Made by a program: the position numbers and the translations under genes. From Pseudomonas phage Presto: 64,000 bases of DNA. The stretch lies in sequence record PQ533662.1. One strand, given 5' to 3'. Below are positions 32,478 through 34,406 of the stretch, in pieces; position 1 is the first letter of the stretch, and every line of letters begins with the position of its first letter. Below the pieces are notes generated by a model. The model worked only from the letters and a program-made list of their open reading frames with translations. It did not search any database and was not told the DNA's origin.

Positions 32478-32744
32478 ATGCTGATCGTTCGGCTTGAGCA
32501 GGGGTGGACCCTTAAGCTTGATAGGCAGGTAGGCAGTTCAGGGAAGCACGGCATTTGGTCGTTTCACTGTGCCGAAAGCACCTACACTCCGGCTCCGGCT
32601 GAGCTACTGCGCCATGCGGCCATTCTGCCGGCGGAACCCAAGGATGGACAAAAGGTAGAGGTGGCTATTTGCGACACGCGCATGCCGCAGGACGAATGGC
32701 GGCCTGTTGGGAACGGCGTTGCGACCTATGAGGCCGAGCGCTGA
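32478..32744 (+). CDS. Hypothetical protein (88 aa), cargo gene
   Basis: About 55 % GC; its 3' end overlaps the SRAP gene on the opposite strand by 19 bp. No recognisable domain. Confidence 0.4.
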   Translation: MLIVRLEQGWTLKLDRQVGSSGKHGIWSFHCAESTYTPAPAELLRHAAILPAEPKDGQKVEVAICDTRMPQDEWRPVGNGVATYEAER

Positions 32745-33415
32745 GGCTCGAGCAGATGGGCGCCCTGGTTTCGGACGTTCCCCACTTCGCGGCTCACCGG
32801 ATACCAAGTGAACGACTCGCTCGGCTCACCCTGGTGGAGCACGATCTGCTCCGCGCGTTCCGGCGGCGTCGCAGGGTCAAGCCACTCGCGGGCTAGGTCG
32901 GGTGGGAGCGCTACCGGTCGGCGGTCGTGAATGTCGACCATGCCGCCGGCAGAGTCGGCGGTGATGATGACGAATCCATGCTGTTCTCCCGGTTCGTCAT
33001 CGAGGCCGGGGAACTGGCCGATCGCTGCGCACAAGACCGGCGAGCCGTCGGCGTGCTGGATGTGGTACGGCTGTTTCCGCGGGCTGCCGCCTTCATCAAC
33101 CCATTCGAACCAGCCCGAGATCGGCGTCAGCGCGCGATGGCGCCACGCGGCGCTGAAGAACCTGCCGTGGGCGACCTTCTCCGCCCTGGCGTTGATCGGC
33201 GCCGCGCGATCACGGGCCCAGAACGGCCTCCATCCCCATCTGATCGCCTGGGCGACCAGGGCGTCCCCTTCCAATCTGAGCGTCGTCACTGCCGTCGACG
33301 GCGCGACGTTGTAGCGCTGTGGCTGTTCGCCGACCAGGTTGACCAGCATGGCCGGCATCGACAGCGCGTCGACGAACTCGTGCAGCCCGGTGTACTGGCT
33401 GAGCCTTCCGCACAT
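32726..33415 (-). CDS. SOS response-associated peptidase (SRAP/YedK family, abasic-site DNA-protein crosslinking)
   Basis: 229 aa beginning MCGR (catalytic Cys2), with the conserved ...RWGWRPFWA...NARAE...SGWFEW... layout of the SRAP family. Confidence 0.75.
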   Translation of the reverse strand: MCGRLSQYTGLHEFVDALSMPAMLVNLVGEQPQRYNVAPSTAVTTLRLEGDALVAQAIRWGWRPFWARDRAAPINARAEKVAHGRFFSAAWRHRALTPISGWFEWVDEGGSPRKQPYHIQHADGSPVLCAAIGQFPGLDDEPGEQHGFVIITADSAGGMVDIHDRRPVALPPDLAREWLDPATPPERAEQIVLHQGEPSESFTWYPVSREVGNVRNQGAHLLEPQRSAS

Positions 33416-33424
33416 TATGGTGCC

Positions 33425-33517
33425 TCACACAGTAGACGCAGCCTTCATGACCAGATAGACGCACATCGCTATACCTGCCGCGAGCAGCATGCCTATGGCA
33501 ATGAAACTGATCTTCAT
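33425..33517 (-). CDS. 30-aa single-TM membrane peptide, co-operonic with SRAP
   Basis: MKISFIAIGMLLAAGIAMCVYLVMKAASTV with an upstream GAGGG RBS; ends 10 bp before the SRAP start. Confidence 0.4.
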   Translation of the reverse strand: MKISFIAIGMLLAAGIAMCVYLVMKAASTV

Positions 33518-33710
33518 GAAATACCCTCGTTGTGACCTGCGATGAGCTGCTGATTGCAAAGAGGGGAAGCAGCAGAAAGTGGAGACTCCGGGAGGTTGGG
33601 CAGCTCCTGGAGTCTCCGTGACCATAGGAGAAAGTCACCCAGATAAGGCTAGACATGTTTCGCTTTGAGGCAAGCGAAGCGGCGCGGTATGGGCTATCGC
33701 CGGAGAGGGG

Positions 33711-34226
33711 CTATGGCGGCCAACGCCACGGCCGGAAGTCGCTGGGGATTTGCTCGACAAGTAGCAGCGTACCGCCGGCGTCGAGCTTGATCTCCAGTCC
33801 ATGCACAACGCCGGCGCGATCAAGAGCCTGGCCCAGGCGCAGATAGACCTGCCCATCCAATGGATCCCGGCTGATGTAGCCCTGGCGCTGTCGTGCGGGT
33901 GCGGGCCCGTGGTAGATGCCCTCGTCGTCCACGCTCCCGACAACACGCCCGCCGTCGATCACGTCGTAGCAGCAGTCGGCGCAGTAGTGCGTCTCGCGCG
34001 TGATGCCGTGCTCGATCGCCCAGGAGTACATGCCGAGCGCGTCGGTGACCATATCGTGCCTGTCTTGCAGTCCTATCACCCCGCACTGATAGAGTTCGTT
34101 TGCCTCGGCCACCAGATACAGGTACTGCTCATCCGCTGCGTACAGCCAGGCGGCATGCTGCCGTATCGCGGCGAGCCATTGGGTGACGCGCTGGTTGTGG
34201 CAATGCCTGGGGTCGGAGTAGGACAT
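33711..34226 (-). CDS. Cys-rich hypothetical protein (171 aa), first gene of a LexA-box operon
   Basis: Contains HYCADCCYD; RBS GGAGA. A LexA box lies 37 bp upstream of the start codon. Confidence 0.5.
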   Translation of the reverse strand: MSYSDPRHCHNQRVTQWLAAIRQHAAWLYAADEQYLYLVAEANELYQCGVIGLQDRHDMVTDALGMYSWAIEHGITRETHYCADCCYDVIDGGRVVGSVDDEGIYHGPAPARQRQGYISRDPLDGQVYLRLGQALDRAGVVHGLEIKLDAGGTLLLVEQIPSDFRPWRWPP

Positions 34227-34262
34227 GGAAATCTCCGGCAGTCGGGTTGGCCGGAAATTATG

Positions 34263-34278
34263 CTGTATGAATATACAG
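34263..34278. promoter_or_regulatory. LexA (SOS) box CTGTATGAATATACAG overlapping a putative -10 (CATAAT)
   Basis: A perfect CTGT-N8-ACAG palindrome of the gamma-proteobacterial SOS-box type, upstream of the minus-strand operon 34226 to 32726. Confidence 0.65.
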
Positions 34279-34406
34279 CAATCATGAGGAGGCGACGAGC
34301 GGAATGCTTGCGCGGGGGCAGCCGTTTCAGTGGGTGGGCTGGGAGAAAATGTGGGTAATCGATAAGGTTCGAGCGGACATTACTCGGCCTAATGTCCGCC
34401 CTAGCC

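Follow-up and report, generated by a model that had tools for sequence, protein, structure and literature searches.

A LexA-type operator and a 171-residue protein family at the right end of temperate Pseudomonas phages: a candidate SOS-timed accessory operon with an SRAP partner

Proteins of the YedK/HMCES type form a covalent thiazolidine link to abasic sites in single-stranded DNA and thereby shield these sites from cleavage. The SRAP family, to which they belong, owes its name ("SOS response associated peptidase") to the fact that its genes sit in SOS operons, and SRAP proteins of temperate phages have already been noted, with a proposed role in the damage response of prophages (PMC3765255; Aravind, Anand and Iyer 2013). 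There is hence precedent for SOS-linked SRAP operons as well as for accessory genes of prophages that are wired to LexA, and an SRAP that combines linkage to LexA with carriage by a prophage belongs to a known kind of system. Here we describe a locus of this general type on a 64,000-nucleotide (nt) stretch of DNA (the window) from Pseudomonas phage Presto (sequence record PQ533662.1), in which a LexA-type box precedes three minus-strand genes coding for a 171-residue protein, a 30-residue hydrophobic peptide and an SRAP protein. The conserved core of this locus is the LexA box together with the gene for the 171-residue protein; the trio of genes is not obligate. We give an about even chance to the reading that the locus is an accessory operon for damage tolerance, timed by LexA and placed at the right end of a temperate Pseudomonas phage.

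The box and the three minus-strand open reading frames (ORFs) had been placed by an initial annotation made from the sequence alone, and both their coordinates and their content were borne out on re-reading. Related loci (80 from IMG/VR, 8 from genomes and 3 from phage records) were collected and analyzed with scripts. Upstream regions were compared across 35 distinct upstream sequences of the P. aeruginosa group, the content of the slot between the gene for the 171-residue protein and an 88-residue ORF was tallied in 87 P. aeruginosa loci, and six distant contexts were fetched around remote homologues of the 171-residue protein. A search of the literature on F116 with SRAP and on LexA-controlled P. 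aeruginosa prophage morons did not turn up a description of the module.

The LexA box and the 171-residue protein family

The box CTGTATGAATATACAG (34263-34278; the coding strand reads CTGTATATTCATACAG) matches the P. aeruginosa LexA consensus CTG-TATAA-ATATA-CAG (CTGTATAAATATACAG, quoted from PMC13114513) at 15 of 16 positions. It is the sole occurrence of CTGT-N8-ACAG in the 64-kb window and the only site there that lies within three mismatches of the consensus (it has one mismatch), where 0.02 such sites would be expected by chance; the SOS box reported by the initial annotation is thereby confirmed. Relative to the gene for the 171-residue protein (33711-34226, minus strand), the box occupies positions -52 to -37 and leaves a gap of 36 nt to the ATG at 34226, which is preceded at a distance of 6 nt by a GGAG ribosome-binding site (34233-34236, minus strand). 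A candidate -10 hexamer, CATAAT (34257-34262, minus strand), can be read from the sequence directly downstream of the box. It had been described as overlapping the box, which it in fact only abuts; an alternative -10 candidate on the minus strand, TATATT, does overlap, as it lies inside the box.

In the P. aeruginosa group, the distance between box and start codon is constant wherever upstream sequence exists. The box is perfect or carries a single T-to-G exchange (CTGG...), with three single loci adding one or two mismatches; each of the 35 distinct upstream sequences has the box itself or a form that departs from it by one to three mismatches, in nearly all cases by one. The sequence beyond the box falls into at least five unrelated classes among the related loci, and in two loci the flanks differ on both sides of a box that is still perfect (CTGTATGTACATACAG). 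The only upstream segment retained across these otherwise unrelated flanks is a short motif, CCGCTCGTCG (34293-34302, minus strand), which is kept as C(C/A)(G/C/T)(C/T)TCGTCG at 15-24 nt upstream of the box and may act as a -35 region, being 17 nt from TATATT, or as a binding site of some other kind. Judged as a sequence signal, the operator of LexA type stands out strongly above chance and keeps its place in all relatives; LexA binding, induction by DNA damage and co-transcription of the operon are predicted.

LexA-type boxes also accompany homologues that are only 27-36% identical to the 171-residue protein, and they do so in all six contexts examined from Ectopseudomonas, Metapseudomonas, Pseudomonas sp. 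and metagenome contigs. In a prophage of Ectopseudomonas hydrolytica (L096), the order is homologue, SRAP and 88-residue ORF, with a perfect box (TACTGTATGCAAATACAGTA) 7 nt before the likely true start; the Logan contig L101 has the homologue and then SRAP, with the box CTGTTTGCGCATACAG in the same place. This same box is present on three ENA contigs (L098-L100) that carry the homologue alone at a prophage end. The order is reversed in a Metapseudomonas otitidis prophage (L092), where SRAP comes first and the box CTGGATATCCATCCAG lies between both genes. In Pseudomonas sp. (L093-L095) and on the Logan contig L102, the latter with a HicB-like gene downstream, the homologue is divergent from a D12 methyltransferase gene, and one box occupies the shared intergenic region. 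None of the sampled lineages thus lacks a LexA-type box beside its member of the 171-residue family. Three of these six contexts have SRAP as the neighbour, and the partner SRAPs are 32-57% identical to that of the window.

It should be noted that the gene calls for the homologues P0055 and P0053 (6001-6040 in L096; 148-180 in L101) start too early and translate the LexA box itself, which yields the N-termini 'NTVCKYSI' and 'NTVCAYSIY'. The true start in both is likely the next ATG, 7 nt after the box, and a gap of this size may mean that the mRNA is leaderless or has a very short leader.

Homologues of the 171-residue protein (PHROG 8717) with at least 71% identity are confined to P. aeruginosa and its phages (39 phage records), and numerous P. 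aeruginosa chromosomes encode the exact protein. Few full-length relatives came out of a profile search against 1.8 billion representatives; these are 27-41% identical and stem from other pseudomonads and from metagenomes. Two scans of genome representatives for further distant loci gave no match, and the family seems to be absent from species-representative genomes. The ratio of nonsynonymous to synonymous substitution rates (dN/dS), taken as a measure of purifying selection, is 0.16 for the gene compared with that of F116. A partial copy of the protein (P0029), found on a 396-nt contig labelled Enterococcus faecium, is probably Pseudomonas DNA contaminating that assembly.

AlphaFold2 (AF2) modelling of the protein was useless when diverse sequences were left out (predicted local distance difference test score, pLDDT, of 45) and became reliable after the relatives with 27-41% identity had been added to the alignment (pLDDT 92.1; predicted template modelling score, pTM, 0.81). 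The resulting model consists of an N-terminal helical bundle (residues 12-77) and a C-terminal all-beta domain of eight strands (residues 86-159). No structural relative of this model was found, a profile search with the family against PDB sequences returned nothing, and a Pfam-A scan of 22 family members up to E = 10 gave no relevant match and none that is ImuB-related. The earlier statement that the protein has no known domain has therefore held: scans against Pfam, NCBIfam and PADLOC were empty, the PHROG matches come without an assigned function, and structure prediction gave a confident fold that is unmatched. The designation "Cys-rich", on the other hand, was an overstatement, since the protein has 5 Cys among its 171 residues and the cysteines of its HYCADCC segment are not kept in distant homologues. 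A zinc or metal site at HYCADCC is ruled out by the replacement of these cysteines in distant homologues and by the existence of one member that has no Cys at all. The invariant positions are mainly Gly, Tyr and Leu, together with one Arg and the C-terminal Trp169, and none of them looks catalytic. Trp169 is invariant throughout the family, while Arg168 is invariant among the close homologues.

SRAP, the peptide and the variable slot

The third gene (32726-33415, minus strand) codes for a 229-residue protein of the SRAP/YedK family (Pfam PF02586), which is matched over the full length of the profile (1-214 of 214) with an E value of 1.7e-47 and 162.2 bits, against a gathering score of 27.1. 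The structures of E. coli YedK (6kcq, 2icu) were matched at E 1e-47, a Bordetella prophage SRAP (PDB 2bdv) is also among the structure-sequence matches, and the alignment with YedK places Cys2 (MCGR), Asn (INAR), Glu (GWFEW) and His (DIHDRRP) in register. Going by its sequence, the protein is a genuine SRAP of the YedK type in which no catalytic residue is missing, as had been proposed from its N-terminal MCGR, and the conservation of the active site suggests that the phage enzyme would crosslink covalently to abasic sites. It is 89% identical to F116p67.

The coupling of the genes is tight. They form a same-strand cluster, and where SRAP directly follows the gene for the 171-residue protein (17 of the 87 loci), the two are separated by a 37-nt spacer with a GGAG; the arrangement of leader, peptide and SRAP is present in 22 loci, and in the window itself the peptide stop codon sits inside the GAGG ribosome-binding site of SRAP, which starts nine bases later. 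An intact SRAP with extra DNA was found in 2 loci, and SRAP is truncated, frameshifted or split by a low-GC cassette in 8. With 41 intact copies and 8 remnants (together 49 of 87 loci), SRAP is the commonest partner of the 171-residue protein. The proposed co-occurrence of all three genes stands insofar as the trio recurs in F116 and in the 22 loci just mentioned; as an obligate arrangement it fails, since the slot is empty in 29 loci and lacks the peptide in the 17 with the short spacer. The leader-plus-peptide cassette (258 nt) is, by these comparisons, an insertion into an older two-gene unit, and the ancestral slot occupant was probably a YedK-type SRAP.

In the window, the gene for the 171-residue protein and the peptide gene are separated by an untranslated, structured leader of 193 nt (33518-33710, minus strand). 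Folding predicts a strong hairpin within it (33581-33617, minus strand), which is followed by a pyrimidine-rich tract, and the minimum free energy is -66.5 kcal/mol over 205 nt (z = -2.83 against shuffled controls). The window-type and F116-type alleles form identical hairpins from different sequences, and the leader is missing where SRAP starts 37 nt after the gene for the 171-residue protein. Among isolated phages, the leader-plus-peptide cassette is limited to F116 and E220.

The 30-residue hydrophobic peptide MKISFIAIGMLLAAGIAMCVYLVMKAASTV (33425-33517, minus strand; PHROG 38460) has its own GAGGG ribosome-binding site. Its window-type and F116-type alleles show 30 differences over 93 bases, with conservative substitutions. 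Length, ribosome-binding site and hydrophobic character are retained in each of them; the leader has indels and the ORF has none. Between the window and F116, dN/dS is 0.20 in frame as against 0.64 and 2.9 in the other two frames, and the peptide looks like a real gene under purifying selection. The mean hydropathy is 2.4, with a 22-residue hydrophobic core between lysines, in agreement with the membrane peptide that had been predicted at this place. These same properties, namely the size of the peptide, its lysine-flanked core and the selection acting on it, might be those of a TisB/DinQ-like, SOS-induced membrane toxin that slows or depolarizes damaged cells and that would be the key part of the three-gene version, all the more so as the peptide lies within the predicted LexA-controlled transcript and behind a structured leader whose hairpins are kept in both alleles. 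We consider this most improbable. A promoter-like site on the opposite strand of 33425-33710 was not detected, Rfam gave no match, and the peptide has no sequence similarity to known toxins; it is present in roughly a quarter of the loci and is coupled to SRAP, so that an accessory or coupling ORF fits equally well, and many small membrane proteins are non-toxins.

Several observations weigh against the reading of the locus as a damage-tolerance operon. The slot holds nothing but 6 nt in 29 of the 87 loci, which leaves the 171-residue gene alone, and it holds unrelated genes in another 9; the protein can hence work without SRAP, and the slot behaves as a generic moron site. The family is acidic, with an isoelectric point of about 5-6, which does not favour direct DNA binding. 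A consensus scan of the region did not call a full sigma-70 promoter and found no good -35, so that the promoter assignment is inferred; scans of the operon region for terminators and promoters and with Rfam gave nothing significant. The hairpin at 33581-33617 might attenuate read-through, which makes expression of SRAP from the LexA promoter less certain than in the 37-nt form. Finally, the sample of loci is biased, as many of them are near-identical prophages.

In an alternative explanation, the 171-residue protein would be an independent, SOS-timed phage factor, such as an inhibitor of a host protein, an anti-defence protein or a host-takeover protein required when induction begins, and SRAP would be one of several passengers in a moron or defence hotspot, functionally unconnected with the 171-residue protein. 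Besides the 29 loci in which its gene stands alone, the cargo that replaces or disrupts SRAP would fit this explanation, and this cargo comprises a PycTM-like membrane protein, a pair of helix-turn-helix (HTH) and HExxH proteins, a small membrane protein with a 183-residue protein, and the low-GC three-gene cassette that splits SRAP. One distant homologue lies two genes from an AcrIF11-like gene, and an acidic protein without conserved catalytic residues resembles many phage inhibitor proteins. On the other hand, the adjacency to SRAP recurs in lineages in which both proteins have diverged to about 30-37% identity, once with the order reversed, which would not be expected of a random passenger; that it has been kept while the SRAPs diverged to 32-57% identity argues for a functional, though not obligatory, link between the two proteins. 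Furthermore, SRAP remnants reveal SRAP as the earlier occupant in several of the loci that now carry other cargo, and PADLOC did not match the 171-residue protein. We therefore regard the independent factor as possible, if rather doubtful.

The alternative cargo has features that deserve mention in their own right. In five loci (L020, L031, L053, L054, L065), an XRE-type HTH protein of 125 residues with a weak CapH-like match is followed by a HExxH protein of 160-188 residues, a pair that resembles the DNA-damage-responsive CapH/CapP or the ImmR/ImmA regulator pairs. In six others (L011, L017, L029, L045, L051, L063), an opposite-strand low-GC cassette coding for proteins of 165, 81 (membrane) and 183 residues is inserted into SRAP after codon 20-25 and leaves a 56-residue stump; in phage Atpa001, the SRAP stump is annotated as 'Gifsy-2 protein'. 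PADLOC, run on the operon genes, for which abortive infection or a manipulation of host repair had been suggested as possible roles, gave no defence-system match.

Position at the prophage end and neighbouring genes

The best DNA matches of the window are P. aeruginosa phages. The annotated gene order in phage F116 is 88-residue ORF (p66), SRAP (p67), 30-residue peptide (p68), 171-residue protein (p69) and divergent integrase (p70), with F116p67-p69 on the opposite strand to F116p66. In the window, a plus-strand module of phage structural and lysis genes takes up positions 1-31,500, and the operon comes after it. The window agrees with the chromosomal loci L001-L004 for about 615 nt upstream of the gene for the 171-residue protein (with two mismatches in L004), and the match then breaks off inside tRNA-Gly(CCC). 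In the chromosomal loci the tRNA is complete and host genes come after it, with the box about 600 nt from tRNA-Gly, while the window keeps the 3' 43 nt of the tRNA only and continues with the integrase of another element. Comparison with these loci places the 3' fragment of the tRNA, which is the core of the attachment (att) site, at 34798-34841 (minus strand), and ARAGORN found no complete tRNA in the window. Since the match breaks exactly inside tRNA-Gly, the operon closes its prophage on the right side as the final transcription unit, next to att; this position and the F116 annotation agree with the earlier view that the operon is prophage-borne. Many P. aeruginosa prophages have the same arrangement at that end. 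The window holds two prophages in tandem at tRNA-Gly(CCC), the operon-bearing one first.

The other fixed border of the variable slot is the 88-residue ORF (32478-32744, plus strand; PHROG 3944), which is convergent with SRAP and overlaps its 3' end by 19 nt. This ORF is present in the 87 related loci at 64-100% identity, whatever the cargo, and was called as a gene in each of the genome loci. It is separated from the spanin gene by about 1 kb (31482-32477) with a lower GC content (0.56-0.57) and no ORF of more than 65 residues, at a place where F116 has two genes; it may represent decayed genes or a non-coding element, and Rfam yielded only a sub-threshold match there (Thr leader, E 0.82). 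The second element (34895-64000) begins with the integrase (34895-36196) and continues with a C5 DNA methylase, a dNMP kinase, an S24-type CI repressor (44410-45075), a CII-like gene and a primase, followed by a second head/tail set of lambda-like genes on the minus strand (terminase gpA, portal, ClpP, decoration protein D, capsid protein E and tape measure).

LexA-type boxes were also seen at two other kinds of phage genes. A DUF1654 gene is preceded at 15-18 nt by a second perfect box, both in F116 (L097, 17722-17737; CTGTATGGATATACAG), where this gene, F116p28, adjoins the CI repressor gene, and in the Metapseudomonas otitidis prophage (L092, 6859-6874; CTGTATATCCATACAG); DUF1654 may be another LexA-controlled phage gene family. 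Boxes about 15 nt upstream of D12-class (Dam-like) methyltransferase genes (L004/L008, 12428-12443; L093, 5847-5862; L102, 3032-3047), all of which adjoin or diverge from the gene of the 171-residue family, suggest that there are SOS-controlled phage methyltransferases.

Antirepressors of the Tum/Gifsy type are characteristically encoded by small prophage genes that LexA controls directly and that lie well away from the immunity region. With its predicted direct LexA control at such a distance, the 171-residue protein could therefore regulate the lysis-lysogeny switch, either as a LexA-controlled antirepressor or as a DinI/PsiB-like modulator of RecA by which the threshold of induction would be set; its acidic character would suit this role, as would the mitomycin inducibility of carriers such as phage phiC725A (PMC5217972). 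We nevertheless hold such a role to be very unlikely. Carriers encode self-cleaving CI repressors of the S24 type (as assigned from a Pfam S24 match in L092, the annotation 'S24 family peptidase', and a faint LexA-like C-terminus of F116p29 at E 0.014, far below the cut-off), and an antirepressor is therefore not needed. In the F116 group, 171-residue proteins with 84-91% identity are found together with at least two types of CI (100% and 72% identity), and no siphovirus carrier appears in the list of the 60 best CI matches; near-identical 171-residue proteins alongside several CI types do not fit a cognate antirepressor. There is, moreover, no Pfam, NCBIfam, PHROG functional or structural match to known antirepressors, and the association with SRAP would be left unexplained.

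Proposed role and comparison with described systems

In the damage-tolerance reading that we prefer, LexA would sit on the box in the lysogen and block the promoter. DNA damage would lead to the cleavage of LexA, and the operon would then be transcribed from the att end into the prophage. SRAP would shield abasic sites in single-stranded DNA while the damaged prophage replicates, as the biochemistry of YedK/HMCES suggests, and the beneficiary could be the damaged lysogen, the induced phage or both. The signal that induces a prophage is DNA damage, so that the phage must replicate a damaged template, and LexA timing would supply protection at just this moment. The 171-residue protein would have a part in this response as well, for which that of an adaptor or binding partner without enzymatic activity is the most plausible, and the peptide would be a later add-on that is translationally coupled to SRAP. 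A more specific version of this reading seems unlikely to us. In it, the 171-residue family would be a cofactor devoted to bacterial SRAP and timed by the SOS response, which would bring SRAP to replication intermediates that carry damage or decide what becomes of its crosslink with DNA. Temperate Pseudomonas phages would then have both proteins so that their damaged genomes can still be replicated upon induction, as a form of Weigle reactivation supplied by the phage, and in the three-gene version the peptide would add a TisB-like pause of the damaged cell. The biochemical roles of the 171-residue protein, the peptide and the phage SRAP are, in all versions, those that we infer from gene content and from related proteins.

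The chromosomal LexA regulon of P. aeruginosa is unusually small, with about 15 genes. Common prophages appear to bring LexA-controlled genes of their own, so that the output of the SOS response would differ between clinical strains. The module would offer a compact and genetically tractable setting in which the in vivo roles and partners of bacterial SRAP proteins can be addressed; phages F116 and phiC725A grow on PAO1. It also singles out one protein family, with a confidently predicted but unmatched fold, whose only constant feature is its LexA operator, and the variable slot next to it is a place in which to look for accessory or defence genes.

Among the described systems with which the locus can be compared, TisB and DinQ of E. 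coli resemble its three-gene form in that they combine a hydrophobic peptide of about 30 residues with a long, structured 5' leader and with LexA-dependent transcription, the latter being predicted here. They differ in that an antisense RNA partner was not found at our locus, that there is no sequence similarity, and that the peptide is part of a polycistron in which it is coupled to SRAP. Tum of coliphage 186, the Gifsy/Fels-2 antirepressors and the dinI-like genes share with the locus a host LexA operator upstream of a small prophage accessory gene. The 171-residue protein has no homology to any of them, its carriers have self-cleaving S24 repressors and belong to several immunity types, and it is associated with SRAP.

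Standalone ImuB-C domains offer a further comparison. These all-beta domains, about 80 residues in length, carry a conserved Trp at the C-terminus along with conserved basic residues and occur in operons whose only other member is SRAP (PMC3765255). Like them, the 171-residue protein is the SRAP partner in a two-gene operon of the SOS type, and its C-terminal half is all-beta, about 80 residues long, devoid of a catalytic pattern, and ends in an invariant Trp after a basic residue. The likeness rests on the published verbal description rather than on an alignment; the 171-residue protein has an additional N-terminal helical domain and is acidic, whereas ImuB-C has been proposed to bind DNA. 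By analogy, a relation of its C-terminal half to ImuB-C may serve as a lead.

Also among the closest described systems are the SOS-associated SRAP (YedK/YoqW/HMCES) operons, including those of temperate phages, and the Bordetella prophage SRAP BB2244 (PDB 2bdv). With these, the locus has in common the Cys2, Asn, Glu and His residues of SRAP, the damage-response neighbourhood, carriage by prophages and the linkage to LexA. The published neighbours of SRAP are UmuCD, ImuA-ImuB-DnaE2, DinB, Ku/ligase, a RecD-like helicase and standalone ImuB-C (PMC3765255), whereas the neighbour here is the 171-residue family; LexA control would be exerted through the promoter of this partner, and the position at the prophage end is fixed. 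What the locus adds to them is a LexA-tied 171-residue protein family with an unmatched predicted fold and a fixed position in temperate phages of Pseudomonas.

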